From the NCBI GenBank assembly GCA_016869915.1, contig VGDA01000002.1, positions 1 through 34,977 on the forward strand: a stretch of 34,977 nucleotides of DNA, read 5' to 3'. The notes under the pieces are model-generated. The model did not search any database, was not told where the DNA came from, and worked only from the letters and a program-made list of their open reading frames with translations. Origin of the DNA: Alphaproteobacteria bacterium (GTDB lineage: Bacteria; Pseudomonadota; Alphaproteobacteria; CACIAM-22H2). Position 1 is the first letter of the stretch. Every line of letters starts with the position of its first letter. The translations under genes were made by a program, and so were the position numbers. Below, piece after piece: positions 9,742-34,977 of this stretch.

Positions 9742-9800
9742 GGTGCGAGGAAGCGCGCGATGGCGGCCGCGCGCTCGTCGGCGGAGCCCGGGCGCTCGAC

Positions 9801-16623: not shown

Positions 16624-17423
16624 GTGACCAAAGCGTTGCGAGGCGCCATCTACCCAGACCTCGAGGGCAAGGCCGTTCTGGTCACGGGCGGCGGCTCGGG
16701 CATTGGCGCCGCCATCGTCCGCGCCTTCGCCCGGCAGAAGGCCCTCGTGGGCTTCGTCGACGTCAAGCGCGCGGAGTCCGAGGCCCTCGTCGCGGAACTG
16801 CGCGCCGGCGGCGCGCGGGTCGCCTTCGCGCCGGCGGCGCGCGGGTCGCCTTCGCGCAGGCCGACATCACCGACACGGCCGCCCTGCGCGCGGCGATCGC
16901 GGCGCTGCGCGCCGAGATCGGCGCCTTCGCGGTGCTGGTCAACAACGCGGCGCACGACGAGCGCCACCGGACCGAGGACGTGACCCCGGAATACTGGGAC
17001 CAGCGCATCGCGGTGAACCTCAAGCACCAGTTCTTCGCCGCGCAGGCCGTCCTGCCCGACATGAAGGCCGCGGGCGCCGGCGCGATCGTCAATTTCGGCT
17101 CCACCTCCTGGATGGCGGGCCAGGGCGGCATGGCGGCCTACACGGCGGCCAAGTCCGCTGTCCTCGGCCTCACCCGGTCGCTTGCCCGCGACTACGGGCC
17201 GCATGGCATCCGCGTGAACGCCATCGCGCCGGGCTGGATCATGACCGAACGGCAGGTCTCGCTCTGGCTGACCCCGGAGGGCGAGGCGGAGCTGATGCGC
17301 AGGCAATGCCTGAAGCGCAAGCTGGCCCCGGACGAGGTGGCGCGCTTCACCGTCTTCCTCGCCTCCGAGGAGGCCTCGGCCTGCACCGCCCAGCACTACG
17401 TGGTCGACGGCGGCTGGACCTGA
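16624..17423 (+). pseudogene. Short-chain dehydrogenase/reductase (SDR); frame broken as written by a 26-bp tandem duplication
   Basis: GTG at 16624. The N-terminus VLVTGGGSGIGAAIV...AGGARVAF lies at the tail of ORF 15511-16983. The remainder (AGGARVAFAQADITD...NNAA...YTAAK...VVDGGWT) lies in ORF 16611-17423, in a different frame. Confidence 0.85.
16802..16853. repeat. Tandem duplication, 26 bp x2, identical (frame-breaking, SDR)
   Basis: gcgccggcggcgcgcgggtcgccttc occurs at 16802-16827 and 16828-16853. Confidence 0.93.
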
Positions 17424-19992: not shown

Positions 19993-20046
19993 CCTCAGGC
20001 ACGACAATGCCGGCGGCCACCTCAGGCACGACAATGCCGGCGGCCA
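19993..20046. repeat. Tandem duplication, 27 bp x2, identical (intergenic, upstream of the ABC binding-protein gene)
   Basis: cctcaggcacgacaatgccggcggcca occurs at 19993-20019 and 20020-20046. It ends about 28 nt before the ATG at 20074. Confidence 0.95.
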
Positions 20047-20073
20047 TAACGCCTCGCACCAGGGAAGGTGACC

Positions 20074-21240
20074 ATGTCGACCAGGAAGACCCGTACGTCC
20101 GCCGAGGAGACCGCACTCGCCGCGCGTCGCTTCGGCCGCCGCCTCATGCTCAAGGGCAGCCTCTACGGCACGGCGCTGGCGCTCAGCCCCGCGATCGTCA
20201 GCGACGCGCTCTCGAGCTCCGGCACCCTCAGCCTGCTGAACTGGGACGACGAGCTCCCGGATCCCGTGATCCCGGACTTCGAGAAGAAGACCGGCATCAA
20301 GGTGACGATGACGCCGTTCTCCCAGAACGAGGAGCAGATCAACAAGCTGCAGGCCACGCGCGGCGCCGGCTTCGACCTCTGCCAGCCGACGCATGACCGC
20401 GCGCAGCAGTTCGAGGAGATCGACGTCCTCCAGCCCTTCGACGAGAAGCAGCTCGCCCTCGACGGCCTGCTGGCGTCGATGATCAAGACCTCGCAGACGA
20501 GCTGGACCTGGAAGGGCCGCCTCTACCACGTGCCGCATTGCTGGGGCACCGAGGCGATCAGCTGGCGCAACGACCTGACCAAGCTGTCCTACGCGAACCT
20601 CTCCTACGGCACGCTGTGGAACGACGAGTACCGCGGCAAGGTGCAGGGCCGCCCGCACTCGCTCCTGCTCGGCATCGGCCTCTGGATGGACGCCACCGGC
20701 AAGCTGCCGTCCAACCGGATGCTCGACGCCTACAAGGACGAGGCGACGATGAAGCGGATCTACGACGTGCTCCTGCGCGAGGCGATCGCGCGCAAGCCAT
20801 GGATCAAGCAGTTCTGGGATTCCGCCGACAACACGAAGTCCGGCTTCATGTCGAACGGCGTCGTGATCGGCCAGACCTGGGACGGCCCGCCGATCAGCCT
20901 GAAGAAGACCGGCGCGCCGGTCACGTTCATGGCCCCGAAGGAGGGCGCCATCAGCTGGCTCGACGGCTGGTCGCTGACGAAGGCGGCGCGCAACGTCCCG
21001 CAGGCCTACGAGTTCCTCAAGTACTGCCACTCCGCCGAGGGCTCGGCGAAGGTGGCGGAGGGCTCGGGCTACAACCCGGTCGCCAAGGGCGCCGACGGAC
21101 TGCTTTCGGAGAAGGCCCGCGGGATCTTCAAGGAAGCCTATCCGGAGGACGCGGTCGACCGCCTCTGGCCGCGCCCGGTCGAGCCGTCCTGGTTCGCCGA
21201 GCTGCGCACCCAGTACGCCGAGAAGCTCAAGGCGGCGTGA
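20074..21240 (+). CDS. ABC transporter periplasmic substrate-binding protein (PotD/PotF-like)
   Basis: ATG at 20074 with agggaagg upstream; the ORF track's GTG at 20068 is the alternative. Twin-arginine-like leader AARRFGRRLMLKGSLYGTALALSPA. Followed by ATPase and two permease genes. Confidence 0.8.
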   Translation: MSTRKTRTSAEETALAARRFGRRLMLKGSLYGTALALSPAIVSDALSSSGTLSLLNWDDELPDPVIPDFEKKTGIKVTMTPFSQNEEQINKLQATRGAGFDLCQPTHDRAQQFEEIDVLQPFDEKQLALDGLLASMIKTSQTSWTWKGRLYHVPHCWGTEAISWRNDLTKLSYANLSYGTLWNDEYRGKVQGRPHSLLLGIGLWMDATGKLPSNRMLDAYKDEATMKRIYDVLLREAIARKPWIKQFWDSADNTKSGFMSNGVVIGQTWDGPPISLKKTGAPVTFMAPKEGAISWLDGWSLTKAARNVPQAYEFLKYCHSAEGSAKVAEGSGYNPVAKGADGLLSEKARGIFKEAYPEDAVDRLWPRPVEPSWFAELRTQYAEKLKAA

Positions 21241-21250
21241 CGTCCCGGGA

Positions 21251-21278
21251 GCCCCTTCCGCGCCCGCGCGGAAGGGGC
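21251..21278 (+). promoter_or_regulatory. Intercistronic stem-loop (12-bp perfect stem, 4-nt loop) between the binding-protein and ATPase genes
   Basis: gccccttccgcg (21251-21262), loop cccg, then cgcggaaggggc (21267-21278). It lies 11 nt after the SBP stop and 30 nt before the ATPase ATG. Confidence 0.6.
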
Positions 21279-21307
21279 CTCCCCCAGCCTCTTTCCAGCG
21301 TGACCAC

Positions 21308-22531
21308 ATGAGCGCCGACGTCGAACTCGACCGGGTGACGATCCGCTTCGGGTCGTTCACGGCCGTCAGGGATGCCTCGCTGAAGATCGCCGGCGGCGAG
21401 TTCTTCAGCCTCCTCGGGCCTTCCGGCTGCGGGAAGACCACCCTCCTGCGCACCATCTCCGGGTTCCTCGACCCGTCCGAGGGCAGCGTGCGCATCGGCG
21501 GCGAGGACATGCGCGGCATCGAGCCCAACCGGCGCCCGACCGCGCTCATCTTCCAGAACCTCGCGCTCTTCCCGCTGATGACCGTGGCCGACAACATCGC
21601 CTACGGGCTCAGGGTGCGCGGCGTCCCGCGCGCGCAGCGCATGGCGCGCGCGGCGGAGCTGCTGTCGCTCGTCGCGCTGCCGGACCAGGGACACAAGCGC
21701 GTGAGCGAGCTGTCCGGCGGCCAGAAGCAGCGCGTGGCGATCGCGCGCGCGCTCGCCGTCGAGCCCAAGGTCCTGCTCCTCGACGAGCCGCTCTCCGCGC
21801 TCGACCTCAAGCTGCGCCAGCACATGCGCAACGAGCTGCGCGCGATCCAGAAGCGCGTAGGCATCACCTTCATCTACATCACGCACGACCAGGGCGAGGC
21901 CCTGACCATGTCCGACCGCATCGCTGTCATGAACCACGGGGTGGTCGAGCAGGTGGGCACGGGGCGCGAGATCTACGCGGACCCGCGCACGCCCTTCGTC
22001 GCCTCCTTCTTCATCTACATCACCCACGACCAGGGCGAGGCCCTGACCATGTCCGACCGCATCGCGGTCATGAACCACGGGGTGGTCGAGCAGGTGGGCA
22101 CGGGGCGCGAGATCTACGCGGACCCGCGCACGCCCTTCGTCGCCTCCTTCGTCGGCGAGAACAACGGCATCGAGGGGCGCATCGCAAGCGTCGACGGCGC
22201 GCGCGCGGCGATCGACACGCCGCTCGGCCGCCTCGTCGGCCGCCGCGGCGAGGGCGCGGCGGCTGGCCGCGCCGGCACGATCTTCGTGCGGCCGGAGAGC
22301 CTGCGCGTCGCCGCGCCCGGCACGGATGCCGCGCTCGCGGCGGAGATCGTCTCCACTGCCTTCGAGGGCAGCACGACGCATGTCTTCCTGCGCGCCGCCA
22401 GCGGGCAGGCGCTCACCATGACCGTCGACATGCGCGAGGCCGCCACGCTGCCCGCGCCGGGCGCGACGCTCCGCCTCTCCTGCGACGAGGGCGAGGCCAT
22501 CGTGCTGGCCACCGACGGCAAGGGCGCATGA
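21308..22531 (+). CDS. ABC transporter ATP-binding protein (PotA-like); carries an in-frame 141-bp tandem duplication
   Basis: Walker A GPSGCGKTT, signature LSGGQKQRVAIARAL, Walker B LLLDEPLSALD. The 47-aa block FIYITHDQGEALTMSDRIAVMNHGVVEQVGTGREIYADPRTPFVASF (H-loop onward) is present twice. Confidence 0.85.
   Translation: MSADVELDRVTIRFGSFTAVRDASLKIAGGEFFSLLGPSGCGKTTLLRTISGFLDPSEGSVRIGGEDMRGIEPNRRPTALIFQNLALFPLMTVADNIAYGLRVRGVPRAQRMARAAELLSLVALPDQGHKRVSELSGGQKQRVAIARALAVEPKVLLLDEPLSALDLKLRQHMRNELRAIQKRVGITFIYITHDQGEALTMSDRIAVMNHGVVEQVGTGREIYADPRTPFVASFFIYITHDQGEALTMSDRIAVMNHGVVEQVGTGREIYADPRTPFVASFVGENNGIEGRIASVDGARAAIDTPLGRLVGRRGEGAAAGRAGTIFVRPESLRVAAPGTDAALAAEIVSTAFEGSTTHVFLRAASGQALTMTVDMREAATLPAPGATLRLSCDEGEAIVLATDGKGA
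21869..22150. repeat. Tandem duplication, 141 bp x2, 2 mismatches (in-frame, 47 aa, PotA-like ATPase)
   Basis: 21869-22009 versus 22010-22150. Mismatches at 21883/22024 (acg/acc, Thr) and 21925/22066 (gct/gcg, Ala). Confidence 0.97.
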
Positions 22532-23547
22532 GCAACCCGCTCACCGCGGCGATCCTCTTCGCGACGCCTCTGGCGGTCGCGCTGGCGTTCTGGCTGCTCG
22601 CGCTGCGCGACCGGCGCCGCGCGGGCGATCCGGGATCGACAGGCTTCTTCCGACGCAACGGACCGGTCGTCGGCGCGTTCCTGCTCGCGGCGACGACGTT
22701 CTGGATCCTGTTCATGATCGTCTGGCCGATGCTCTACATGGTCGACTACTCGTTCCACCGTAAGCTGCCGCCGTCGCGGCGCGGCGGGCCGGACGACGTC
22801 TACACGCTCGAGAACTACTGGTACTTCGTCTACGGCAGCACACGCGTCTTCACGAGCTACAACTGGGTGCACATCAACGCGTTCTGGCAGACGATCGCGG
22901 TCAGCGTCGTCATCACCGTCGCCAACTTCGCGATCTGCTACCCGCTCGCCTACTACATGGCGCAGGTCGCCAGGCCAGGCCGCCTGCGCGTACTGCTGCT
23001 GCTGCTGATCGTGCCCTACTGGGTCAACGAGATCCTGCGCGCCTTCGCCTTCATGGTCCTGTTCGGGACCGGCGGGACGATCAACAAGCTGCTGCTGGCC
23101 ATGGGCGCGATCTCGGCACCGATCGACTTCATCGGCCTGAACGTCGCGCTCTATTCCGGGCTGACCTACGCCTACCTGCTGCTCATGGTCTTCCCTCTCT
23201 ACAACGCGATCGAGAGCCTGGACCACAACCAGGTCGAGGCGGCACGCGACCTGGGCGCGCCATGGTGGCACATCCACCTCTTCGTGGTGATGCCCTTCGC
23301 CAAGCCGGGCATCGCCTCGGGCTGCACGCTCGTCTTCATGCTCGCGGCCGGCGCGCTGGCCGCGCCGCTCGTGCTCGGCGGTCCGAAGACACTGTGGTTC
23401 ACGCCGATCGTCTACGACCGCTTCTACCAGGCGTTCAACTGGCAGCAGGGCTCGGCCTACGCGATCATCCTGCTGCTCACCTGCGTCGCCTTCGTGATGG
23501 CGGTGATGCGGCTGTTCAAGGTCAGCCTGTCGGAGATCACGCGATGA
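22528..23547 (+). CDS. ABC transporter permease (PotB-like)
   Basis: 339-aa multi-pass protein with EAA motif EAARDLGAPWWHIHLFVVMPFAKPG. ATGA overlap with the ATPase stop. Confidence 0.85.
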   Translation: MSNPLTAAILFATPLAVALAFWLLALRDRRRAGDPGSTGFFRRNGPVVGAFLLAATTFWILFMIVWPMLYMVDYSFHRKLPPSRRGGPDDVYTLENYWYFVYGSTRVFTSYNWVHINAFWQTIAVSVVITVANFAICYPLAYYMAQVARPGRLRVLLLLLIVPYWVNEILRAFAFMVLFGTGGTINKLLLAMGAISAPIDFIGLNVALYSGLTYAYLLLMVFPLYNAIESLDHNQVEAARDLGAPWWHIHLFVVMPFAKPGIASGCTLVFMLAAGALAAPLVLGGPKTLWFTPIVYDRFYQAFNWQQGSAYAIILLLTCVAFVMAVMRLFKVSLSEITR

Positions 23548-24404
23548 CCTCGCGCTCCGTCCACCGGACGATGATCGGCTTCTACATCGCCCTGTTCTTC
23601 GCCTTCCTGTTCGGGCCGCTCGTGGTGATGGGCATCACGGCCTTCAACACGCCCAGCTATCCCCAGGTCTGGCCCTTCGAGGGATTCACGCTGCGCTGGT
23701 TCAAGGCGCTGCTGGCGGACCGCACGCTGATGGAGGGCTTCCGCAACAGCCTCCTGATCGGCACGCTCGTCGTCTGCCTCGCCGTGCCGCTCGGCCTCGC
23801 CGCCGCGATCGTGATGACGCAGGTCCACGCGCGGGCACGGTCGCTCTACTACCTCGTGGTCGTCTCGCCGGTGCTGACGCCCGGCGTCATCCTCGGCATC
23901 TCGACCGTGATCTTCTGGAGCGACGTCACGCGCTGGACCGGCGCGCAGGGCCTCTACAACGGCATCTTCCTGGCGACGCTCGGCCAGTCGACCTTCATCT
24001 CCGCCTACTGCATGCTGATCTTCATGTCGCGGCTGCAGCGCTTCGACCGCGCCCAGGAGGAGGCGGCGCTCGACCTCGGCGCGTCGCGCACCCAGGTCTT
24101 CTTCCATGTCCTGCTGCCGTTCCTGAAGCCCGCGCTGCTCTCGGCGGCGGTGCTCGCCTTCCTGTCGAGCTTCGAGAACTACAACACCACGACCTTCGCC
24201 ATCCTGGCGGACAAGACGCTGACCACGGCGCTGGCGGGGCGCGTGCGCCAGGGGACCACGCCCGCGATCAGCGCCCTCGCGGTCCTAATCACCGGCGTGA
24301 CCCTCGCCGGCGCGCTCCTCTACGAGTTGCTGCGCCGGCGCGAGCAGGCGCGCGACGAGGCGCGCGCCCTCGCGGCAGCGGCTGCGGAGCGCGCGGGGAC
24401 CTGA
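23544..24404 (+). CDS. ABC transporter permease (PotC-like)
   Basis: ATG at 23544 (ATGA overlap), inside ORF 23262-24404. EAA motif EAALDLGASRTQVFFHVLLPFLKPA. Confidence 0.85.
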   Translation: MTSRSVHRTMIGFYIALFFAFLFGPLVVMGITAFNTPSYPQVWPFEGFTLRWFKALLADRTLMEGFRNSLLIGTLVVCLAVPLGLAAAIVMTQVHARARSLYYLVVVSPVLTPGVILGISTVIFWSDVTRWTGAQGLYNGIFLATLGQSTFISAYCMLIFMSRLQRFDRAQEEAALDLGASRTQVFFHVLLPFLKPALLSAAVLAFLSSFENYNTTTFAILADKTLTTALAGRVRQGTTPAISALAVLITGVTLAGALLYELLRRREQARDEARALAAAAAERAGT

Positions 24405-24979: not shown

Positions 24980-25771
24980 TCAGGCGAGCAGGAAACCGGC
25001 GACCAGCCGCTCGAACTCGGCCTGGAAGCAGTGGTTGTAGAAATGCCCGCCGGTGGGCATCAGCGACAGCCGCGCATCGGGGATCCGTCGCGCGAGATCC
25101 TCGCTGAAATAGGACGGGGTCACGGCGTCGTCGCGCGCGGCGCTGACCAGCGTCCGCTGCCGGATGCGCCCGACCTCCGCCGCGCGGTCGAAGGCGAGGA
25201 TCGCCGCGATGCGGGCGAGGACGATGCGGTCCTCGGTCGGCGGCACGGGAGAGGCGGCCTGCGCCGCCTCGAGTTCGTCCGCGTGGCGGGAGAGCCACCA
25301 TGGCGGATACAGGACGAGGTTGCCGAGCTGGCCGTAATAGCCGCGGCCGAGGCGCTCCATCCCCTGCGCGCGCGTGGCGAAGAGCCGGCGGAAATAGCCG
25401 TCGGCGCGGGTCCAGGTCGCGCTGAGGACGAGCCTGTCGATGCGGTCGGGGGCGTCGAGGGCGATGGTCTGCCCGATGGCGCCGCCGGTCGAATGGCCGA
25501 CCAGATGGGCGCGCGCGATCCCGAGCGCGTCCATGAGCTGCAGCACGTCGTCGGCCATCTGGCCGACCGAATAGGCGACGTCGGATGGCCCGCTGCGCCC
25601 GCAGCCGCGATGGTCGTGAAGCACCACCGTGAAGTCGCGCGCGAGCGCGGGAACGTGGCGCTGCCAGAACGTGGCGATGCCGCCCAGCCCGGGCACGAGG
25701 AGCAGCGGCGGCCCGGAGCCGTGGGTCTCGTAGTGGAGCCCCGCGCCGTCGCGCAGCCTCAGGAGCGGCAC
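24980..25771 (-). CDS. Alpha/beta hydrolase (3-oxoadipate enol-lactonase-like)
   Basis: 263-aa ORF with canonical nucleophile elbow LVGHSTGGAIG, HGSGPPLLLVPGLGG N-terminal motif and C-terminal GGHF. Confidence 0.8.
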   Translation of the reverse strand: MPLLRLRDGAGLHYETHGSGPPLLLVPGLGGIATFWQRHVPALARDFTVVLHDHRGCGRSGPSDVAYSVGQMADDVLQLMDALGIARAHLVGHSTGGAIGQTIALDAPDRIDRLVLSATWTRADGYFRRLFATRAQGMERLGRGYYGQLGNLVLYPPWWLSRHADELEAAQAASPVPPTEDRIVLARIAAILAFDRAAEVGRIRQRTLVSAARDDAVTPSYFSEDLARRIPDARLSLMPTGGHFYNHCFQAEFERLVAGFLLA

Positions 25772-25777
25772 GAGGGG

Positions 25778-26314
25778 TCAGCGCCCCGTCGAGGAGGCCG
25801 GCTCCTGGCGGCTCGATGCGCCGTCGAGGCCGGCGAAGACCGTGCGACGCTCGATCTCGGCGACGTTGTCCGGGCGCGCGAAGGGCTCCGGCGCGGGCTC
25901 GCCGGGGCTGCGCGGGCGGCCGATGCCCGCGAAGAAGTTCTCGAGGCCCGGCGGCGACAGCACCCAGAGCATCTTCATCTCCGTCGTGCCCTCGTTGACG
26001 AACTTGTGCTTGCGCCACGGGCCCAGGTAGATCGTCGTGCCAGGGCGGATGGGATGCGGCACGCCGTCGACATAGGCCGTGCCCTCGCCCTGCACGAAGT
26101 GTAGCAACTCCTCGTTCTGGTCGTGCCAGTGCTCGCGGATGTAGCAGCCGGGCGCGATGGTCTGGATGCCCATCGACAGCGTGCGCGAGCCGGTCATCTC
26201 CGGGGTGACGTGGACGTCGCTGTATCCGTTGGCGGGGACCGGCTGCCAGTAGCTGCGCGCCTCGCCGGGCTGAACGACCACCGCCTCGCCGCGCTTCGTC
26301 GCACCATCGTCCAT
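25778..26314 (-). CDS. Cupin domain protein
   Basis: 178-aa ORF with cupin motif 1 (PGCYIREHWHDQNEELLHFVQGEG) and motif 2 (GTTIYLGPWRKHKFVN). Ends 6 nt upstream of the hydrolase gene. Confidence 0.7.
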   Translation of the reverse strand: MDDGATKRGEAVVVQPGEARSYWQPVPANGYSDVHVTPEMTGSRTLSMGIQTIAPGCYIREHWHDQNEELLHFVQGEGTAYVDGVPHPIRPGTTIYLGPWRKHKFVNEGTTEMKMLWVLSPPGLENFFAGIGRPRSPGEPAPEPFARPDNVAEIERRTVFAGLDGASSRQEPASSTGR

Positions 26315-26391
26315 CGCGATGCTCCCTCGTGAGAAGACGCGCGATCCTAGCGCGGCTTGACGCGCCGCTTCCAGACGCCGCTAATCGGCCG

Positions 26392-27777
26392 ATGACCGAT
26401 CCCGCCGACCTGTCCGCCGTCGACATGCTTGCAGCATTCGCCGCGAGGCGCCTCTCCCCGGTGGAGGTGCTCGAGGCGGTCCTGGCGCGGATCGACCGCG
26501 CGGAGCCGTCGCTCCGCGCCCTCTACGCCCTCGATCCCGACGGCGCCCGCGCCGCGGCGCGGGAGAGCGAGGGGCGCTGGCTGCGCGGAGAGGCGCGCGG
26601 CCTCGAGGGCGTGCCCGCGACGATCAAGGAGAACATCGCCACGCGCGGCGTCCCCGTCCCGCTCGGCACGGCCGCGCGCGACCTCGTGCCAGCGCCCGCG
26701 GACGCGCCTCCCGCGGCGCGGCTGCGCGAGGCGGGCGCGGTGATCGTCGCCAAGACCACGATGCCCGACTACGGGATGCTCTCCTCGGGCCTCTCGAGCT
26801 TCCACCAGCCGGCGCGCAATCCCTGGAACACGGCGCTCAACCCCGGCGGCAGCTCCGCCGGGGCCGGCGCGGCCGCGGCCGCGGGCTACGGGCCGCTGCA
26901 TGTCGGCACGGACATCGGCGGCTCGATCCGCCTGCCTGCCGCGTGGTGCGGCGTCGCGGGGCTGAAGCCCAGCCTGGGCCGCGTGCCCATCGACCCGCCC
27001 TATTACGGCCGCGTCGCCGGCCCGATGACGCGCGAGGTGCGCGACGCGGCGCTGATGATGCGCGAGCTGTCGCGCCCGGACTGGCGCGATTCGATGAGCC
27101 TGCCGCCGCAGGCCATCGACTGGATGGACCTCAATCGCGACGTCCGCGGGCTGCGCGTGGGGCTCTGGCTCGATGCCGGGTTCGGCCTGCCCGTGGAGCC
27201 GGAGATCCGCGCCGCGGTGTCCGACGCGGCGCGGCGCTTCGCCGACGCCGGCGCGCATGTCGAGCCGATGGAGAGCTTCGTCACGCGGCGCATGCTCGAC
27301 GGGCTGGATGCGTTCTGGCGGCTGCGCAGCTGGACGGACATCTCCACCCTGCCCGCCGCGCGGCGCGAGAAGGTCCTTCCCTACATCCTGCGCTGGGCCG
27401 AGGGCGGGGCCGACCTGTCGGCCGAGGACGCGTATCACGGGATGAGCCAGATGATGGCGATGCGCGAGGCGGCGGTGCGCGCCTGCCAGCCCCACGACCT
27501 CGTGCTCTCGCCCGTCGCGCCCTGCGTGCAGTTCCCTGCGGAGTTCGCCGGCCCCACGAACGATCCCGCGCGGCCACTCGAGCACATCGGCTTCACCGTC
27601 GCATTCAACATGTCCGAGCAGCCGGCGATCTCCGTGAACGCGGGATGGACCCGCGACGGCATGCCGATCGGCCTGCAGATCGCCGGCCGGCGCTTCGACG
27701 ACCTCGGCGTGCTGCGCGCGGCGCGCGCCTGGGAGGCGATGCGCGGCCCGCAACGCCCCTGGCCGCGGATCGATTGA
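26392..27777 (+). CDS. Amidase (amidase-signature family, GatA-like)
   Basis: Start MTDPADLS at 26392 inside ORF 26329-27777. AS signature GGSSAGAGAAAAAGYGPLHVGTDIGGSIRLPAAWCGV, with the upstream catalytic Lys context TIKENI. Confidence 0.9.
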   Translation: MTDPADLSAVDMLAAFAARRLSPVEVLEAVLARIDRAEPSLRALYALDPDGARAAARESEGRWLRGEARGLEGVPATIKENIATRGVPVPLGTAARDLVPAPADAPPAARLREAGAVIVAKTTMPDYGMLSSGLSSFHQPARNPWNTALNPGGSSAGAGAAAAAGYGPLHVGTDIGGSIRLPAAWCGVAGLKPSLGRVPIDPPYYGRVAGPMTREVRDAALMMRELSRPDWRDSMSLPPQAIDWMDLNRDVRGLRVGLWLDAGFGLPVEPEIRAAVSDAARRFADAGAHVEPMESFVTRRMLDGLDAFWRLRSWTDISTLPAARREKVLPYILRWAEGGADLSAEDAYHGMSQMMAMREAAVRACQPHDLVLSPVAPCVQFPAEFAGPTNDPARPLEHIGFTVAFNMSEQPAISVNAGWTRDGMPIGLQIAGRRFDDLGVLRAARAWEAMRGPQRPWPRID

Positions 27778-27854
27778 ACCTTGCAAGGCTGCGCGGCGGG
27801 GATTAACCCCTCGCGGGCGGGCGCCATGCCCGCGACGCCGAGGAGAGACACCAC

Positions 27855-28491
27855 ATGCGCTTGCGCCCAGCCTCCGCCGCCATCGCCCTCGCGGCCACGG
27901 CCTTCCTCGTGCTCGCGGCACCCGCCCCGCCATGGCGGGAAATCCGCTCGACGACTCGGCTGCCTGCGCCGGCTCCCTGATCGGCAACGCCACGGCGGAT
28001 CTCTCGCAGGGGCGCGAGGACCGGTTCGACGAGGGCGTCGACCTCGCCTATGCCGGCTACCTCACCCATGTCTTCGCGGCCAAGGGCGCGTACAAGCAGG
28101 CCGACCTCGAGCTCGCCGACAAGATCCTCGCCATCAACACCGACCGCGTCATCTCTCGCAGGGCCGCGAGGACCGCTTCGACGAGGGCGTCGACCTCGCC
28201 TATGCCGGCTACCTCACCCATGTCTTCGCGGCCAAGGGCGCGTACAAGCAGGCCGACCTCGAGCTCGCCGACAAGATCCTCGCCATCAACACCGACCGCG
28301 TCATCGAGGCCGCGAATTCCAATGCCTTCGACGCCGAGGTCTACGAGCAGATCGTCGCCTGCTCGCAGTTCCTCGCGCTCCAGGTCATGCGCAACGCGGC
28401 CGTCTACGCCGACAACGCCAAGCGCATCGCCGCGCTCTCGGCCGACAACAAGAACCGCATCCGCAGGCTGGTGAAGGCCGGCCGCCGCTGA
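27855..28491 (+). pseudogene. Hypothetical (probably secreted) small protein; disrupted as written by a 152-bp tandem duplication and possibly a 1-nt indel after the signal peptide
   Basis: ATG at 27855 has a strong aggaga SD and encodes signal-like MRLRPASAAIALAATAFLVLAAPAP, but this frame stops at about 27980. The mature part MAGNPLDDSAACAG...DRFDEGVDLAYAGYL... starts at 27932 in another frame with no SD. It then shifts frame again at the 152-bp repeat and finishes in ORF 27781-28491. Confidence 0.45.
27999..28302. repeat. Tandem duplication, 152 bp x2, 2 mismatches (frame-breaking, hypothetical secreted protein)
   Basis: 27999-28150 versus 28151-28302. Mismatches at 28012/28164 (ggg/ggc) and 28024/28176 (cgg/cgc). 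Confidence 0.97.
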
Positions 28492-28503
28492 GGCGCGGCC
28501 CCG

Positions 28504-29538
28504 TCAGCTGCGCCAGGGCAGGACGCGGCCGGTGACGACGACGTGCTGGCCCTGGGTGACGCGCGCCGCCCAGGCCTGGGCGATGACGATGCCGTCGACG
28601 CCCGCGCGCACCGGCCAGGGCTCCATGTCGATGCGCTCGAAGTCGTGGATCCAGCCGACCACGTCGCCCGCCTTCACGGCGCTGCCACAGGCGATCGCCT
28701 CCTCGTAGAGGCCGCCGAAGGGCGCGACGGAGAAGCAGGCGCGGTCGACCATCGCGACCTTGCGCTGCGTGCCGTCGCGATGGTGGTCGATCTTCTCGAT
28801 GCGCCCGCCCAGCTGGCCATGGCGGATGGCGGCGGCGAGGACGCCCTGGCGGCCCCACCGCACGCCATTCGCCTGCACGGCCTCGCCCCAGCCGAGCTCG
28901 GTGCCGACGGTGACCTTGCCGAGGCGCTCGGCCTCGGAAGGCAGCAGCCCGGGTGTCTCGTTCTGGTAGCTCATCACCAGCGGCGTGCCGAACCAGCGCG
29001 CGGTCTCCTCGATGTCGCGCGCCTGCGCCGGGTCCTCGACCTCGTGGAAGCTCGCGACCTGCGCGAAGCGGGTGCCGCCGCCGGAATGGAGGTCGATGAC
29101 GACATGGACATGCGGCCAGATCGCCTCGCGCACGAAGGCGGCGATGCGGTGCGTGATGCCGGCGAGCGCCGGCGTCCGGCCCGCGCCCTCGATGAAGGCG
29201 CGGTTGAGGTTCACGCCGTCGTCGGCGCGCGATTCGCGGGTGCCGGCGCGGAAGGCCGGCGGGTTCAGCACCGGCACGAGGATGACGCGTCCCTCGACGT
29301 CCGCGACGTCGATCTCGCGCTGGAGGCGGTGCAGGACGACCGGCCCCTCGTACTCGTTGCCGTGGTTGGAGCCGAAGGCGACGAGCCCCCTGCCCGGCCG
29401 CGCGCGCGGCCCGACGAACACGGTGAGCGGGACGAGGTGGTCGCCCCAGATCGAGTCATGCTCGAGCGCGACCCAGTAGTCGCGCCTGCCGCGCGTCTCG
29501 AGGTCCAGCTGCTGCGGCTTGACGATCGGGCGGTCCAT
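28504..29538 (-). CDS. Succinylglutamate desuccinylase/aspartoacylase (AstE/AspA) family zinc deacylase
   Basis: 344-aa ORF with GSNHGNEYEG (HxxE zinc site), NLNRAF and DLHSGG motifs. Confidence 0.8.
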   Translation of the reverse strand: MDRPIVKPQQLDLETRGRRDYWVALEHDSIWGDHLVPLTVFVGPRARPGRGLVAFGSNHGNEYEGPVVLHRLQREIDVADVEGRVILVPVLNPPAFRAGTRESRADDGVNLNRAFIEGAGRTPALAGITHRIAAFVREAIWPHVHVVIDLHSGGGTRFAQVASFHEVEDPAQARDIEETARWFGTPLVMSYQNETPGLLPSEAERLGKVTVGTELGWGEAVQANGVRWGRQGVLAAAIRHGQLGGRIEKIDHHRDGTQRKVAMVDRACFSVAPFGGLYEEAIACGSAVKAGDVVGWIHDFERIDMEPWPVRAGVDGIVIAQAWAARVTQGQHVVVTGRVLPWRS

Positions 29539-29548
29539 GGCTCGCTCC

Positions 29549-30721
29549 TCAGTTGACGCGATGCGCGCGGATGAAGTCCTCGTCGACGCCGACGCCGATG
29601 CCGACCGCGTCCGGGATCGCGACGGTCCCGTCCGCCTCGAGGCGGAAGGGCTGCGTGGTGATCCCCCGCGTGAGCAGGCTCTGGCTGACGTTGAACTCGA
29701 CGAAGCGCGCGCGCGGCAGGGTTGCGAGCAGTTGCAGGCTGTAGCCGGTCAGCAGGTGCGTGAGCCAGGAATGCGGCACGAGGTCGATGCCCGCCTCCTG
29801 CGCGAGCTGGGCCACGCGCCGGGCGACCGTGATGCCTCCGCAGCGCGACAGGTCCGGCTGGACCACGTCGACGCAGCCCTGCCGGATGAAGCGCTCGAAC
29901 TCCCAGTGCGTCGCGACCTGCTCGCCCGCGGCGATCGGCACCGGCGAGTTGGCGCGCACCCAGGCATATTGCTCGAAATCCTCGGGATGGATGAAGTCCT
30001 CGACCCAGCCGACGCCGTGGGCGGCGAGCCACTCGCACATGGCCAGGGCCTCGCGCCGCGAGCGCGGCTCCCCCCAGCGCTTCCATCCCGCCGGATACCA
30101 GCCGGGATCGACGAGCAGCGCGCGATCGGGCCCCAGCGCCTCGCGCGCGGCGGCGACGAGCTCGCGGTCGCGGCCGGGATCCTCGCCGAACACGCCCCAG
30201 CCGAACTTCACGGCGCGGAAGCCCCGCGCGACATAGCCAAGCGCCGCCTCGCGCATGCCGTCGGGCGTCTCGCGGAACAGCGTCGAGGCATAGGCGACCA
30301 CGCTTTCGCGGCGCCTGCCGCCGAGCAGCGCGGCCAGCGGCATGCCTGCCGCCTGCGCGCGGATCGACCAGAGGCAGTTGTCGATCGCCGACATGCACTG
30401 CATGGCAAGGCCGCGGCGACCGTAATAGGCGCTGCCCACGTACATGCGGTCCCAGAGCCGCTCCACTTGCAGCGGATCCTCGCCGACCAGCATCTCGGAG
30501 AGCGTGCGGAAGCCGAGGATCGACATGCCCTGCCCGGCGATCACCGCGACCGCGGCCGGCGCGAGCGTCTCGACATCGGCCCAGCCGACCAGTCCCTCGT
30601 CGGTCGCGACGCGCACGACGAGCTGCCAGTCGCCGTTGTCGCTCGCCTCCTCGCCGCCGGCGGAGGCGCCATAGCCCTGCTGGCCGCGCAGCAGGATCGG
30701 CTCCACCGCGACGATCCTCAT
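29549..30721 (-). CDS. Enolase-superfamily enzyme (mandelate racemase / muconate lactonizing enzyme family)
   Basis: Start MRIVAVEPILL at 30719-30721 (ATGA overlap with the upstream gene). Shows a capping-domain plus barrel pattern with LLVDPG, WVEDF, AAGEQ and DVVQPDLSRCGGIT motifs. Confidence 0.8.
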   Translation of the reverse strand: MRIVAVEPILLRGQQGYGASAGGEEASDNGDWQLVVRVATDEGLVGWADVETLAPAAVAVIAGQGMSILGFRTLSEMLVGEDPLQVERLWDRMYVGSAYYGRRGLAMQCMSAIDNCLWSIRAQAAGMPLAALLGGRRRESVVAYASTLFRETPDGMREAALGYVARGFRAVKFGWGVFGEDPGRDRELVAAAREALGPDRALLVDPGWYPAGWKRWGEPRSRREALAMCEWLAAHGVGWVEDFIHPEDFEQYAWVRANSPVPIAAGEQVATHWEFERFIRQGCVDVVQPDLSRCGGITVARRVAQLAQEAGIDLVPHSWLTHLLTGYSLQLLATLPRARFVEFNVSQSLLTRGITTQPFRLEADGTVAIPDAVGIGVGVDEDFIRAHRVN

Positions 30722-32139
30722 GGCGCCGGCGACGCCATCATGAGGTCCGAGGCGAGGCGCACCGCCTCGCGCGTCAGCGCAGCTGCCGCCTCCGGCGCAT
30801 AGGGCGTCGCCCACTCCACCTCGTAGCCGCTGGAGCGGAAATCCTCGGCGTTGGGGACGTAGCCGTCCCAGCCATTGGTGTAGCCGCCGAAATGCAGGAA
30901 GGGCGCGGCGTCGGAGGCGCGGATGTCGGCGCCGATGCGCGCGAAGGGCTCGAGCGGCGCGCCAACGAGCACCGCGTCGCCGATGCGCGTGGCGTGCAGC
31001 TCGATGTCGACCGCGCGGCGATTGGCGCAGAAACGGCCCCAATGCGCGCCCATCTGCGCGCGCTTGGCGCGGAAATTGGCGGCCGCGAGCTCCGCCGGCG
31101 TGGCGACCGAGCGGTCGATGGCGCGCACGGCCGCGGTCGCGGCCTCGGACTGCGCGTCTAGCTCGTCGACGTCGCCATAGGCGCGCACGGGCAGCGCGAT
31201 GCGGCGGCTCTCCACGGCGAGGACCTGGGGCGCGGAAGGCAACTCGTCGTCGACCCAGATGCCGAGCGGCGCGCCGGACTCGACGACATGGTCGAAGCGC
31301 TTGCGGATCCGGCGCGTCGAGAGGCCGATGGCGACGCGCGCGGCGTCGAGGCCGATCTCCGTGCCCATGCGCCGCGGCGCGTCACGGTCGGCGACCAGGG
31401 CCTCGCGCGGGATCTGGTCGCCCGCGCAGCCCTGCAGGAAGAGGCAGTGCCCGCCGACGGACTGCTCGACGATGCGCTTGAGATGGCCGGGATAGTCGGG
31501 GCTCACGAGGCGGTTCCCGTGCGCGAGCACGATCGGATGGGTCCCGTATCCGACGATGGTCGCGATCGGCCGGCCGTCGAGCGCGTCGATCCTGAGGACG
31601 CTGAGGACGGGGTCGCGGTATCCGTCCCAGTTCTGCGACACGACCACGCGTCCGTCGGGAAGCGCGAGGCGGCGGTTCACCGTCACCTCGCTGCGCCCGT
31701 AGCCCGAGGCGCTGCGCGCCGGGCGCAGCGCGGCGCGAGCGGCGCGCGCGGCCTCGCGCAGCGCGTCGAGCACCTTCGCGCGATAGGCGGGCACGAGCTC
31801 CATGCCGGGAAGCTGCGCCTGCGTGCCGAAGCCATGCGTCGCCCAGGGCGGCCCGGAATGCGTGTGGGTGAAGGACAGCCGCACATGCTCCGGCGCGAGG
31901 CCGAGCTCCTCGCCGACCACGGCGCGCAGCTCGCGGCTCTCCTCGCTCGACATCAGCAGGAAGTCGAGGTCGACGATCGACGCGCGCACGCCGCCCTGCT
32001 CGAGCAGCAGGATCGTGGCCAGCAGCGGCAGGTCGATGCCCTCCGCGCGGTCATGCGTGCGCGCGCCCCAGTTGACATGCGCGATCCCTATCGGCGGCGT
32101 CATGTCCGCGCGGCCGGCGCCGGCCATGAGATGCGTCAT
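30718..32139 (-). CDS. Neutral/alkaline ceramidase-like N-terminal-domain hydrolase
   Basis: Start MTHLMAGAGRADMTPPIG at 32137-32139 with GGAGG upstream. FTHTHSGP and LQGCAGDQIP motifs resemble the neutral ceramidase zinc site. This is the C-terminal part of the spurious 1401-aa ORF. Confidence 0.6.
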   Translation of the reverse strand: MTHLMAGAGRADMTPPIGIAHVNWGARTHDRAEGIDLPLLATILLLEQGGVRASIVDLDFLLMSSEESRELRAVVGEELGLAPEHVRLSFTHTHSGPPWATHGFGTQAQLPGMELVPAYRAKVLDALREAARAARAALRPARSASGYGRSEVTVNRRLALPDGRVVVSQNWDGYRDPVLSVLRIDALDGRPIATIVGYGTHPIVLAHGNRLVSPDYPGHLKRIVEQSVGGHCLFLQGCAGDQIPREALVADRDAPRRMGTEIGLDAARVAIGLSTRRIRKRFDHVVESGAPLGIWVDDELPSAPQVLAVESRRIALPVRAYGDVDELDAQSEAATAAVRAIDRSVATPAELAAANFRAKRAQMGAHWGRFCANRRAVDIELHATRIGDAVLVGAPLEPFARIGADIRASDAAPFLHFGGYTNGWDGYVPNAEDFRSSGYEVEWATPYAPEAAAALTREAVRLASDLMMASPAP

Positions 32140-33935
32140 GGCGTCCTCCCCTTCTTCTTCTCGCGTGCCATCCTTGCCAGTGGCAGGACGAGGTCGTCGG
32201 GCGTCGTGCAGGGCGTGGCGCCCGCCGCGGCGATGTCGGCCGAGACGTCCACGGGCAGCGACGTGTTCGAGTTCTGCGGCACCTGGTTGAGGCGCCCACC
32301 GATGAAGACGGGGATCTGCAGCCCGGCCTCGCGCATTGCCGCGCGCAGCGCCTGCATGTAGTCGAGGGCGACACCGTTGTAGGTCGAGAGCGCGATCGCG
32401 TCGGCCCGGCTCGCGCGCGCCTTCGCGACGAGGTTCGCCGGGTCCGCATGCACGCCCGCGTCGACGATCCCGACGCCGACGCCTCGCAGGATCTCCTCGA
32501 TCAGGATCTTCCCGTATTCGTGGACGTCGGTGCAGGCGACGACCGCGCTCAGGCCGGCGCCCGAGAGGTCCGCGCGCATCGCCGGATCGAAGCCGCGGAT
32601 CTTCTTCTCGGCGGCGCGGGCGAGCGCCGTCATCGTCGTCGAGGGTACGTACGGCCTGCGCCCGCGTGGCGCCGCCGCGTCCTCGACGCCCGGCCCGTAG
32701 AGCTCCTCGAGGCGCTTCGGGCCGATGCGCCGGATGGCGAGCAGGAGCTCGAAGGCGTCGTCGGTGCGGATGCCGGCCTCGCGCAAGCCGGAGAGCACGC
32801 GGTCGCGGAAGCGCTCGCCGCCGGCGACGATCGCGTCGGCGATGGCGTCGGTGCGCGGCAGGTCGACCATCGGCAGCCAGAGCTCCGACTGCTCGACGAG
32901 CTTGGCGCAGACGAGCTGGACGTCGATCACCTCGTCGATGTCGGGGATGCGCACGCCCTCGGTGATCGGCACGGGATTGATCGCGTGGCCCGAGGGCATC
33001 AGCCGCTGGCCCAGCGCGTCGGCGAGCAGGTAGGCGCTGAGCCCGCCGTAGTTGGAGACGCGGTCGGCCTCGTAGACCACGGTGTTGCCGTAGATCATCG
33101 TGCCCGGCACCGCCTCGCGGCCGCGCGCCAGCGCGCGCTGGAAGGCAAGCCGCGTCGCCGGGTCGGTGAAGGTGTTGCCGAAGCAGTGCGAGAGGCGCCC
33201 GCCGAGCAGGTCCTCGACGACATGGCGCTCGAGCAGCGCGGCGCCGAACGTGCAGGACAGGTCCGTGAAGAGCGGCGCGAAGCCGTCGAAGCCGTCGTCG
33301 AGGTTCGAGTGGATCAGCACCTCGACCGGCTGCGCGGCCATGAGCGCCAGCGCCTCGACCGTCGCCTCGGTCGTCGCGACGTCGTCGTGCCACTCGGGAA
33401 GGCGGAAGGTGAAGTACTGGCCGAGATTGCCGACCGATGTCGCGCCGGCGGCGAGCGCGGCGACGGTGTTCTCCACCGCCGAGGGCATGCCGATCACGAA
33501 GTCCCCGAAATGCGGGGCCACCGGTGCCTCGGAGGTGAGCGCGACGAAGTCCTCGACGCCCTCGAGGATCATGCCGGTGCCGCGCCCGCGCTCGGCGCGG
33601 CTGGCGGCGGGATGGCCCATCGACCAGTCGAGGCAGATGCCGTAGCGGTCGACGCGCAACCCCTGGCGGTCGAGCGCGTTCCAGATCTCGAACCACGCGC
33701 GGCGGCTCTTCGACTTGTCCCGGAAGCCGATCTGCGCGTGCTGCATGATCGCGCCCCCGGCCATGCGCCTGCGCTTGTACTCGGCCTCCGAGGGCACGTC
33801 GTGGTGGGACAGGAACCTGCCGCGCGCCACCTGGGCGACGCGCGCGAGCGCGCGGCCGCGCGCGACGACCTCGCCGCAATCCGGCAGCGCGGCCTCGGGC
33901 AGGACCTCGGCGCGCGCGAGGGGACGGGCCGCCAT
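32136..33935 (-). CDS. Fused cobalamin-dependent mutase-like protein (N-terminal glutamate-mutase-E-like barrel plus C-terminal B12-binding domain)
   Basis: 599-aa ORF. The C-terminal ~138 aa carry the canonical B12 motifs DVHEYG (DxHxxG, 32511-32528), LSTYNG (SxL-like) and VFIGGRL (GG). The N-terminal ~430 aa show patchy resemblance to the glutamate mutase epsilon subunit by recollection (AIMQHAQIGF, GMILEGVEDF, AAGATSVGNLGQYFTFRLP). Confidence 0.65.
   Translation of the reverse strand: MAARPLARAEVLPEAALPDCGEVVARGRALARVAQVARGRFLSHHDVPSEAEYKRRRMAGGAIMQHAQIGFRDKSKSRRAWFEIWNALDRQGLRVDRYGICLDWSMGHPAASRAERGRGTGMILEGVEDFVALTSEAPVAPHFGDFVIGMPSAVENTVAALAAGATSVGNLGQYFTFRLPEWHDDVATTEATVEALALMAAQPVEVLIHSNLDDGFDGFAPLFTDLSCTFGAALLERHVVEDLLGGRLSHCFGNTFTDPATRLAFQRALARGREAVPGTMIYGNTVVYEADRVSNYGGLSAYLLADALGQRLMPSGHAINPVPITEGVRIPDIDEVIDVQLVCAKLVEQSELWLPMVDLPRTDAIADAIVAGGERFRDRVLSGLREAGIRTDDAFELLLAIRRIGPKRLEELYGPGVEDAAAPRGRRPYVPSTTMTALARAAEKKIRGFDPAMRADLSGAGLSAVVACTDVHEYGKILIEEILRGVGVGIVDAGVHADPANLVAKARASRADAIALSTYNGVALDYMQALRAAMREAGLQIPVFIGGRLNQVPQNSNTSLPVDVSADIAAAGATPCTTPDDLVLPLARMAREKKKGRTP
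33279..33296. repeat. Tandem duplication, 9 bp x2 (in-frame DGF-DGF in the B12 protein); may be natural
   Basis: gaagccgtc occurs at 33279-33287 and 33288-33296. It is short enough to be a native sequence feature. Confidence 0.5.
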
Positions 33936-33938
33936 GCC

Positions 33939-34977
33939 TCAGAACCGCGAGCCGGTCGCCGGCACCGGCCCGATCCTGAATCCCTCGGGCAGCGGGTCGT
34001 CGTGGTCCAGGACGAAGTTGTGGAAGCCCGTGATCCAGGCCCGGCCCTCGACCCGTGGCACGACATAGGTGATGCCGCCGCGCGTCTCGGCGCGGATCGG
34101 CGTGCCGGTGAAGTACGTGCCGAGCACGCCCTCGAAGCGGCGCGACTGGCCGAGCGCGATCTCGCCGCGCCCGTGCAGGAGCGCGGTGCGCGCCGAGGTG
34201 CCGGTGCCGCAGGGGCTGCGGTCGAGCGATCCCGGCGGGCAGAGGATCGTCTGCCGGTAGTCGCCCGTCGTCGTGCGCGCCGAGGTGAAGAGCACCTGGT
34301 AGCAGACGTCGATGTCCGGACGCTCCGGATGGACGACCTTCAGCTGCTCGCCGACCGCGGCGCGGATGCGCCGCCAGGCGGAGATCAGCGCCGCGTCGTT
34401 GTGCGGGCTCAGCTCCAGGCCGATCGCGTCGGCGTCGACGAAGCAGTAGAAGTCGCCGCCATAGGCGATGTCGACGAGGATGCGGCCGATGCCCTCCACC
34501 TCGAGCGGCGCGGCGCGCATGAGCTCGAAGCTCTCGACGTTGTCGAAGTACGTTGTCGAAGTAGACGGAGCGCGGCGCGCCGCCGGAGACCCGCACGTGG
34601 CAGGTGACGAGGCCGGCCGGCGTGTCGAAGCGCACCACCGTCTCGGGCTCGACGACGGGCACCATCCCGGTCGCGACGACGGTCGTCGCCGTGCCGATGA
34701 TGCAGTGGCCGCACATCGGCACGTACTCGTCCTGCTCCATGATGACGACGGAGAAATCCGCGCCCGGGCCCTGCGGGGGCAGGAGCAGGACCGAGCACAT
34801 CATGCCGCTGCCGCGCGGCTCGAAGTTGAGCATGCGTCGCAGCGCGTCGTCGTTGCGCCAGAGCCAGGCGCGCTTGTCGAGGAGCGTCGCGCCGGGCGGG
34901 ACCGGGACGCCACCGACGATCACGCGCGTCGGGTTGCCCTCCGTGTGGGAGTCGACGGTGTTGATGGTACGCCGGAA
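33939..34977 (-). pseudogene. Proline racemase family enzyme (Cys/Cys type: proline racemase or 4-hydroxyproline 2-epimerase); 5' end outside the window; frame broken as written by a 13-bp tandem duplication
   Basis: The N-terminal part (...TINTVDSHTEGNPTRVIVGG...EYVPMCGHCIIG...RSVYFDN) is the head of ORF 30718-34923. The C-terminal part is ORF 33939-34520 (...LDRSPCGTGTSAR...). Catalytic Cys codons are at 34711-34713 and 34209-34211. Confidence 0.85.
34538..34563. repeat. Tandem duplication, 13 bp x2, identical (frame-breaking, proline racemase family gene)
   Basis: cgttgtcgaagta occurs at 34538-34550 and 34551-34563. Confidence 0.9.

Follow-up and report, generated by a model that had tools for sequence, protein, structure and literature searches.

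A lineage-specific operon around an uncharacterised B12-binding protein, with a possible role in imino-acid catabolism, in uncultured high-GC Alphaproteobacteria

We analyzed a stretch of 34,977 nucleotides (the window) from contig VGDA01000002.1 of an alphaproteobacterial assembly (GCA_016869915.1; GTDB lineage CACIAM-22H2), and in it five genes on the minus strand at 28504-34977, one of which encodes an uncharacterised B12-binding protein. In the direction of transcription, the cluster consists of a Pro_racemase-family gene (33939-34977, truncated by the window end, with its first 4 codons outside), the B12-binding protein gene (32136-33935), a gene for a protein like the N-terminal domain of neutral ceramidase (30718-32139; 473 aa), an enolase-superfamily gene (29549-30721; 390 aa) and an AstE/AspA-like gene (28504-29538; 344 aa), which is the last operon gene in the window. 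The original prediction, made from the letters of the window, had described these genes as translationally coupled, and the junctions were exactly as it claimed. The first two genes are separated by 3 nt (33936-33938; TGAggcATG), ATGA overlaps join the second to the third gene (32136-32139) and the third to the fourth (30718-30721), and 10 nt separate the last two (29539-29548). Shine-Dalgarno-like sequences (GGAGG or GAGGAG) stand ahead of the ceramidase-like and AstE-like genes. The window has a GC content of about 72%, which makes long spurious open reading frames (ORFs) abundant in it, but the five genes are real, since they have strong homologues and occur in identical order in relatives.

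The five genes make up the distal part of an operon of six genes, or of seven in some relatives. In the loci L092, L001 and L006 (loci used for comparison are given by such numbers), a second Pro_racemase-family gene lies 8 nt upstream, beyond position 34977. In L001 (15427-16404) and L006, an extra ATGA-coupled gene follows the AstE-like gene and encodes a 325-aa lipoprotein, with a lipoprotein signal and weak similarity to a polyhydroxyalkanoate-depolymerase / alpha/beta-hydrolase model. The window does not have this gene: about 970 bp are missing at the short repeat GCGCCTCAGCG (28504-28514). No Rfam family, cobalamin riboswitch included, was found in the window, and no promoter-like or terminator-like sites were found in 27600-34977 by a scan that is uninformative at 72% GC.

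All five family assignments made in the original prediction held when examined by Pfam scores, motifs and, for the B12-binding protein, the predicted fold. However, none of the five proteins reached an NCBIfam equivalog cut-off, so that the labels hold at the level of the family and none of the proteins can be filed under a characterised enzyme.

The B12-binding protein (599 aa in the window, 596 aa natively) had a single Pfam match, to PF02310 at residues 468-549 (42.2 bits against a cut-off of 32.1). Within this domain the motifs DVHEYG (469-474, of the form DxHxxG), STY (516-518) and GG (545-546) were invariant in 29 sequences. N-terminal to residue 430 there was no Pfam or NCBIfam match, including to MM_CoA_mutase and Met_asp_mut_E, and when a profile of the family was searched against the PDB, the matches were confined to residues 403-582, through the B12 domain, with no PDB barrel among them. 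The barrel is, as judged by sequence, a new family. An AlphaFold2 (AF2) model built on the 29-sequence alignment (pLDDT 90.8, pTM 0.92) consisted of an N-terminal triosephosphate-isomerase-type (TIM) barrel and a C-terminal Rossmann B12 domain, with a helical linker (residues 332-458). The top match of this model in a Foldseek search of the PDB was the alpha subunit of methylmalonyl-CoA mutase (MCM), which aligned over the full length (E 3e-12, query-normalised TM-score (TMq) about 0.5, probability 1.00). The next ranks were taken by ornithine 4,5-aminomutase, glutamate mutase E (target-normalised TM-score, TMt, 0.52) and lysine 5,6-aminomutase. The label "B12 mutase-like" given in the original prediction is thus supported at the level of the fold, on a predicted structure.

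The family of the B12-binding protein is large. It comprised more than 1657 clusters at 90% identity and was found in the genomes of 352 GTDB species; clustering at 50% gave 237 representatives at E <= 1e-30, and the full-length members among the matches listed were about 560-620 aa long. From Alphaproteobacteria to Asgard archaea its members retain 48-60% identity. About 120 columns were invariant in an alignment of the window protein with 28 homologues 54-96% identical to it, which suggests a single chemistry. In public annotation its members are called only "cobalamin-dependent protein" or "methylmalonyl-CoA mutase cobalamin-binding subunit". Some metagenome-assembled genomes (MAGs) of Proteobacteria/Rhodospirillaceae carry the B12 gene as two or three paralogues in tandem, with 52-55% identity to the query (L013, 644-6100; L014, 1379-8400; L016, 9998-14244), and these paralogues hint at several substrate specificities within the family.

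The gene neighbours of the family were then recorded. One genome per GTDB species was scanned with a degenerate pattern, which gave 352 stretches with relatives of the B12 protein, of which 80 were examined, and the census was made by ORF clustering and by counting Pfam families among 119 neighbours upstream and 150 downstream. Of the 73 distant loci with enough downstream sequence, 50 had, directly downstream of the B12 gene and in the same orientation, a gene like that of 1-pyrroline-5-carboxylate (P5C) reductase, with the domains F420_oxidored and P5CR_dimer (here P5CR-like). By ORF clustering the P5CR-like gene was present in 52 loci, and by Pfam it accounted for 27-30 of the 150 downstream neighbours. 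Its products scored below the ProC equivalog cut-offs. The pair was found in Alpha- and Gammaproteobacteria, Acidobacteriota, Chloroflexota, Gemmatimonadota and Asgard archaea, and in most lineages other than that of the window, the B12 enzyme and the P5CR-like gene form a self-contained two-gene unit. Neither the B12 family nor its reductase partner is described in Pfam, NCBIfam, the PDB or the literature searched.

Apart from the P5CR-like gene, no neighbour family occurred in more than 12 loci, and the census therefore yielded no substrate. The minority neighbours were enriched in amide hydrolases (amidase, M20/ArgE above its cut-off, S9 and amidohydrolase), imino-acid enzymes (Pro_racemase family, an OCD-family reductase of 1-pyrroline-2-carboxylate/1-piperideine-2-carboxylate (Pyr2C/Pip2C) above its NCBIfam cut-off, DAO and Rid) and oxygenase- or demethylase-like proteins (PhyH, a GbcA-like Rieske protein and an old-yellow-enzyme-like (OYE) Fe-S flavoenzyme). 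PhyH was encoded directly upstream of the B12 gene in about 12 loci and was translationally coupled to it in L083 and L075.

Several individual loci of the pair were also recorded. Among the Asgard MAGs, the pair was present at 48-52% identity in L018, L028, L042, L047 and L050, from the groups Hodarchaeota, Promethearchaeota, Heimdallarchaeota and Hermodarchaeota, and in L028, L042, L047 and L050 it was followed by an ABC-2-type transporter gene pair on the opposite strand. Two loci came from cultured bacteria. Pacificispira spongiicola KN72 (L075, 8386-12534) has genes for a GntR regulator, PhyH, the B12 protein and the P5CR-like protein, with a PotF-type ATP-binding cassette (ABC) transporter nearby, and Tistlia consotensis USBA 355 (L051, 9977-12537) has the B12-P5CR pair, with genes for a thiamine-diphosphate enzyme and an enolase-superfamily protein 2.5 kb downstream.

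The predicted fold and the reductase partner bear on what the B12 protein may do. It resembles the class I adenosylcobalamin (AdoCbl) mutases (MCM alpha; GlmE with GlmS) in its TIM barrel packed on a C-terminal B12 domain and in the base-off/His-on motif DxHxxG...SxL...GG. One explanation, which we regard as rather unlikely, is that it works as a carbon-skeleton mutase, comparable to glutamate mutase or 2-methyleneglutarate mutase, on a small amino or imino acid, and that the rearranged product would cyclise and be reduced by the P5CR-like enzyme; conversion of a methyl-branched to a linear compound, or contraction or expansion of the ring of a pyrroline or piperideine carboxylate, would be examples. 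The DxHxxG His-on domain and the arrangement of barrel over corrin match MCM and GlmE best, the barrel is about the size of that of GlmE, a Pyr2C/Pip2C reductase is encoded in some of the loci, and no lysine stands 11 residues after the histidine, at the position that we take to hold the pyridoxal phosphate (PLP) lysine in reference enzymes. However, the barrel shows no detectable similarity to the barrels of GlmE or MCM, to PF01642 or PF06368 or to any PDB barrel. The protein is a single 596-aa chain without CoA-type neighbours, and neither a MeaB-like chaperone nor an adenosyltransferase was among its recurrent neighbours. We also know of no mutase that has, or works with, a P5C-reductase-like partner.

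The absence of that lysine also led us to down-weight an aminomutase reading. The class III aminomutases (OraE, KamDE) likewise combine a barrel with a B12 Rossmann domain (Foldseek E 7.5e-8 and about 1e-4), and the known enzymes use amino-acid substrates. In these enzymes we take the PLP lysine to stand 11 residues after the cobalt-ligand histidine (His618/Lys629 in ornithine 4,5-aminomutase; His133/Lys144 in lysine 5,6-aminomutase), whereas the B12 protein has Leu482 at the corresponding position (His471+11), a residue conserved in at least 90% of the family, and it had no aminomutase Pfam match.

That the protein is instead a methylcobalamin-dependent corrinoid methyltransferase, with its TIM barrel fused to the corrinoid domain and demethylating N-methylproline or a betaine, seems very improbable. 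The best sequence matches of the B12 domain were indeed to methionine synthase (E 8e-12, with the family profile), and its DVHEYGK resembles what we take to be the MetH motif, DVHDIGK. The barrel contains many invariant His, Cys and Asp residues that could bind a metal, and betaine-oxygenase-like genes are found in a few loci. But the corrinoid cap domain B12-binding_2 (PF02607) had no match in the protein at E <= 0.01, nor was there a match to MttB, MtaB or URO-D, and over the whole chain the fold ranked MCM far above MetH (TMq about 0.5 against 0.25-0.41). No second methyltransferase, pterin-binding protein or RamA-like activase was found among the conserved neighbours, and a methyltransferase would leave the conserved P5CR-like partner unexplained.

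The partner recalls a different system. In Clostridioides difficile, P5C is made from 4-hydroxyproline by the glycyl-radical enzyme HypD, a trans-4-hydroxy-L-proline dehydratase, whose gene stands beside one for P5C reductase (PMC7077986). Several glycyl-radical eliminases have B12 twins, and the dehydration of 4-hydroxyproline is stated to have no B12 counterpart (PMC7077986). The two systems are alike in that a radical enzyme gene stands beside a P5CR gene in an imino-acid context. They differ in that the protein family and the cofactor are unrelated (glycyl radical against B12, the latter predicted) and in that the window has no reductase. The B12 protein could then be the cobalamin counterpart of HypD, by which the 4-hydroxyl group of a 4-hydroxyproline isomer would be moved or eliminated to give P5C and then proline; we give this a low probability. 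The adjacency of the B12 and P5CR-like genes in 50 of 73 loci and the existence of B12 and glycyl-radical twins among eliminases speak for it, and a stand-alone unit is what would be expected for a two-step conversion of hydroxyproline to proline. In addition, the gene directly upstream belongs to the Pro_racemase family in the window clade, L010 and L011, and the GbcA-like and OYE/Fe-S neighbours in some loci could yield proline or hydroxyproline. On the other side stand the PhyH hydroxylase genes upstream of the B12 gene and the lack of hydroxyproline genes in most loci. His-on binding with a mutase-like fold would, to our knowledge, be unprecedented for an eliminase.

The Pro_racemase-family genes are another element of the imino-acid theme. 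With its frame repaired, the window protein matched PF05544 with 364.8 bits, the alignment spanning residues 8-330 and positions 2-325 of the 325 in the profile. The intact 345-aa protein of L092 and the repaired window protein both have a Cys/Cys pair, in MCGH (Cys93) and SPCGTG (Cys256), which we take to be the racemase/epimerase type, rather than the dehydratase type, of this family. Against the equivalog models the window protein scored 288.7 bits for ProR (cut-off 556), 274.6 for trans-3-hydroxy-L-proline dehydratase (550) and 261.9 for 4-hydroxyproline epimerase (376). The upstream paralogue has a Ser/Cys pair, and its score on the model for trans-3-hydroxy-L-proline dehydratase was 440 bits (cut-off 550). 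As to a regulator or transporter farther upstream, which the original prediction had hoped would hint at the substrate, none was adjacent: divergent short-chain dehydrogenase/reductase genes lie upstream of the Ser/Cys paralogue. In L002 the upstream region instead holds a gene for an MlrC-like peptidase, with a TRAP transporter nearby.

The original prediction of a Cys/Cys racemase or epimerase thus stood as to the family and the cysteine pair, but the gene is not one open frame in the window. Three-frame translation showed that a perfect 13-nt tandem duplication at 34537-34563 (tacttcgacaacg twice) shifts the frame, which is intact in L092, L001, L003 and L006. The B12 gene contains a 9-nt in-frame tandem duplication at 33278-33297, which adds Asp-Gly-Phe within the conserved HSNLDDGF loop; this insertion was the only segment of the model with a pLDDT below 50 (residues 213-215). 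Locus L092, a Joint Genome Institute (JGI) metagenome contig (Ga0169931_10004457), matched the window at 31490-34977 with 0 mismatches and had neither the 13-nt nor the 9-nt insertion. The 13-mer was also single-copy in L001, L003 and L006, which are relatives at 92% nucleotide identity, and the junction of the 13-nt duplication was found in no public metagenome contig searched, while the un-duplicated version retrieved L092. In its native form the operon codes for an intact Cys/Cys enzyme of 345 aa and a B12 protein of 596 aa. The original prediction had been made unaware of this frameshift, of the upstream Pro_racemase paralogue and of the P5CR-like partner of the B12 protein.

The operon shares with bacterial hydroxyproline pathways the Cys/Cys Pro_racemase gene and the trans-3-hydroxyproline dehydratase-like paralogue, and some B12 loci add a Pyr2C/Pip2C reductase. 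It differs from them in that no NCBIfam equivalog cut-off was reached, and genes for the canonical partners D-hydroxyproline dehydrogenase, pyrroline-4-hydroxy-2-carboxylate deaminase and alpha-ketoglutarate semialdehyde dehydrogenase were seen neither in the window nor in L001 or L002.

The ceramidase-like protein matched PF04734 with 40.3 bits (cut-off 32.1) at residues 6-230, and the profile match ended at position 232 of 509. It shares with neutral ceramidase (Pseudomonas aeruginosa, 2zws; human, 4wgk) the N-terminal catalytic domain with the zinc motif THTHSGP; two segments align with 2zws, and THTHSGP and the GY.N...YV segment are conserved. However, it has 473 aa against 646-688 aa, does not have the C-terminal domain, has no counterpart of 2zws past about residue 490, and shows by eye no obvious signal peptide. 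It is probably a cytosolic zinc amidohydrolase that hydrolyses small amides rather than ceramide. Its family is small (138 clusters), and relatives with 46-60% identity are encoded beside SBP_bac_5-type peptide ABC transporters or beside a flavin-mononucleotide (FMN) dehydrogenase and DUF4862. A conserved pair of ceramidase-like and enolase genes was considered and rejected: the enolase of L089 is only 32% identical to that of the window, and L090 and L091 have none.

The enolase-superfamily protein belongs to the mandelate-racemase subgroup (C-terminal barrel domain MR_MLE_C 198.8 bits, N-terminal capping domain MR_MLE_N 45.4 bits). Its best equivalog was galactonate dehydratase (168.8 bits, cut-off 311), and it scored 77.3 bits for cis-3-hydroxy-L-proline dehydratase (cut-off 500) and 37.5 for N-acetyl-D-glutamate racemase (cut-off 400). 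The nearest solved structure was 3sjn, a protein of unknown function, and VDPG, VEDF, GEQ, QPD and PHSW are candidate motifs for the Asp/Glu/Glu metal ligands and the His-Asp dyad, read from the sequence alone.

The AstE-like protein matched PF24827 with 107.8 bits. Its nearest solved or curated relative is DoeB, the N-acetyl-L-2,4-diaminobutyrate deacetylase, to which it aligned (6twm, E 7e-42) with the motifs NHGNEYEGP, DLHSGG and TELG, of the H-x-x-E...H zinc site and the catalytic Glu, conserved. Its score on the DoeB model TIGR02994 was 189.4 bits, far below the cut-off of 402.7, and the cluster has no DoeA, DoeC or DoeD. An ectoine-pathway reading of the gene was rejected on these grounds, and the substrate is probably an N-acyl amino acid other than that of DoeB.

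The original prediction had proposed the five genes as a candidate new system, to be judged by their co-occurrence in other genomes, and here it largely failed. When the five proteins were compared by tblastn with 82 loci encoding the B12 protein, the set was not co-conserved. The other four families were confined to six loci, L001-L006, in which the B12 protein is at least 81% identical and which represent roughly four or five unclassified alphaproteobacterial species; they were found in none of the 76 loci with a 48-60% identical B12 protein. Even within the near clade the content varied, as L005 has neither the Cys/Cys epimerase nor the AstE-like gene. By the criterion of co-occurrence, the five genes form a lineage-specific mosaic of separate modules, in a narrow clade of uncultured Alphaproteobacteria of about 72% GC, rather than a conserved system of five enzymes. 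Taken by itself, the operon is an ordinary catabolic island restricted to one lineage. The statement that no described pathway uses this combination of enzymes agreed with our findings, in that none was found in the literature searched.

A mosaic of this kind could be an island of independent hydrolases and isomerases gathered by shuffling, the five genes being co-expressed yet functionally unrelated or only loosely related. The P5CR-like gene is present in some near relatives and absent from others, the AstE-like and epimerase genes are missing from L005, the extra lipoprotein hydrolase gene occurs in L001 and L006, and each family has different partners elsewhere. Nevertheless, we consider this explanation doubtful. 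L001 and L002 retain, at a protein identity of 80-95%, the ATGA overlaps that join the B12, ceramidase-like and enolase genes, and two Pro_racemase-family genes together with a P5CR-linked B12 enzyme make a coherent imino-acid theme.

The explanation that we prefer, and to which we give an even chance, is that the cluster is a lineage-specific catabolic operon for imino acids of the hydroxyproline type, centred on an uncharacterised B12 radical enzyme whose product is probably a cyclic imine. As the fold and the neighbours suggest, the B12 enzyme would use the 5'-deoxyadenosyl radical from AdoCbl for a 1,2-shift or an elimination on a proline- or ornithine-type amino or imino acid. The product would cyclise to, or would already be, a P5C-type imine, which the P5CR-like partner would reduce to proline or a proline analogue; without a partner, as in the window, the imine would pass to housekeeping ProC or PutA. 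The ceramidase-like and DoeB-like zinc amidohydrolases may free the amino acid from its N-acyl or peptide conjugates, the Ser/Cys dehydratase-like enzyme and the Cys/Cys epimerase or racemase may interconvert or dehydrate isomers, and the enolase-superfamily enzyme may dehydrate or epimerise a further isomer. The enzymes together would channel imino acids like hydroxyproline into the metabolism of proline and glutamate. The outline given in the original prediction, in which a proline-like amino acid undergoes deacylation, epimerisation and a B12 step, is still plausible. The HypD-like conversion described above would be the sharpest version of this explanation, with the Cys/Cys enzyme supplying the correct hydroxyproline epimer; it is a tentative version, as unlikely as we judged that conversion to be.

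Several observations weigh against the preferred explanation. No P5CR-like sequence was found anywhere in the window by tblastn, and the closest relatives L001, L003 and L006 likewise have no such partner; in the near relatives L002, L004 and L005 the P5CR-like gene is located just upstream of the B12 gene. Hydroxyproline-type genes stand beside the B12 gene in only about 8 of the 82 loci, and the enolase is closer to sugar-acid dehydratases than to hydroxyproline enzymes (169 against 77 bits). Where PhyH is encoded upstream, a route from proline through hydroxyproline back to proline would be futile, and the substrate may therefore not be hydroxyproline. Known B12 eliminases bind the cofactor base-on, whereas the B12 protein has a His-on motif of the mutase type, which makes a carbon-skeleton rearrangement or another 1,2-shift at least as likely as dehydration. 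The mechanism proposed for the B12 enzyme is a prediction from a modelled fold and from gene neighbours, and the tight packing of the genes indicates co-expression and is not proof of a shared pathway.

The genes next to the operon were also examined. A small secreted-protein gene on the plus strand (27781-28491) is convergent with the operon and marks its 3' limit. It encodes 161 aa in relatives, the product had no Pfam or NCBIfam match, and a signal peptide is present in the 161-aa version of L001. Beyond it lie syntenic genes identified by Pfam for an amidase-signature enzyme (26329-27777, plus strand), a cupin (25778-26314, minus strand) and an alpha/beta hydrolase (24980-25771, minus strand). 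The proteins of this block (24980-27777) were 74-98% identical to their counterparts in L001, L002, L004, L005 and L006, and these three genes belong to the same genomic island as the operon, on other transcripts. At 20050-24404, 4 kb from the cluster, the window encodes an ABC transporter with an SBP_bac_8 binding protein, a TOBE_2-domain ATPase and at least 1 permease gene; a 141-bp tandem duplication lies inside the ATPase gene.

The secreted-protein gene is disrupted by a 152-bp tandem duplication (27999-28305), the copies of which differ at 2 positions; the unit is single-copy in L001 and L006. In the whole window there were 14 tandem duplications of about two copies each, with periods of 9-153 nt and 96-100% identity, many of them intragenic. 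They were located at 1127-1270, 7506-7548, 8708-8785, 9800-9822, 10661-10772, 11152-11459, 15031-15112, 16801-16861, 19993-20046, 21868-22150, 27999-28305, 31592-31609, 33278-33297 and 34537-34563, a density of 4.0 per 10 kb, compared with 0-1.6 per 10 kb in seven comparison loci. Comparison with other assemblies showed that all three checkable duplications were absent there and that the short one at 31592-31609 is native. Since the otherwise identical L092 is without them and the window has 14 such duplications, the 13-nt and 9-nt duplications are probably assembly artefacts or the result of very recent slippage, and not part of the operon. The duplications across the window suggest either that an artefact of assembly recurs systematically in the source genome or that slippage there is unusual.

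The five-gene operon is of lesser weight, as one lineage's way to feed substrates to the B12 enzyme, and the interest of the region is concentrated on the B12 gene. B12-dependent enzymes are known for only some twenty reaction types, by our estimate. The family described here is large and conserved, has a barrel without sequence relatives and has a constant partner in the P5CR family of imine reductases, and it is a candidate for new cobalamin chemistry in amino- and imino-acid metabolism. It is conceivable, although we put the chance well short of even and think it improbable, that the B12 protein founds a new family of B12 radical enzymes with a reaction new to B12 enzymology. The most attractive candidate would be a 1,2-shift of the hydroxyl group, or a dehydration, of a hydroxylated imino or amino acid, such as the conversion of 4-hydroxyproline to P5C; the protein would then be an oxygen-tolerant counterpart of HypD, and the P5CR-like partner would complete the route to proline. 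If a hydroxyproline-type compound is indeed converted to proline, the family would provide a second, oxygen-compatible route for an abundant environmental metabolite and a further pair of B12 and glycyl-radical enzymes.

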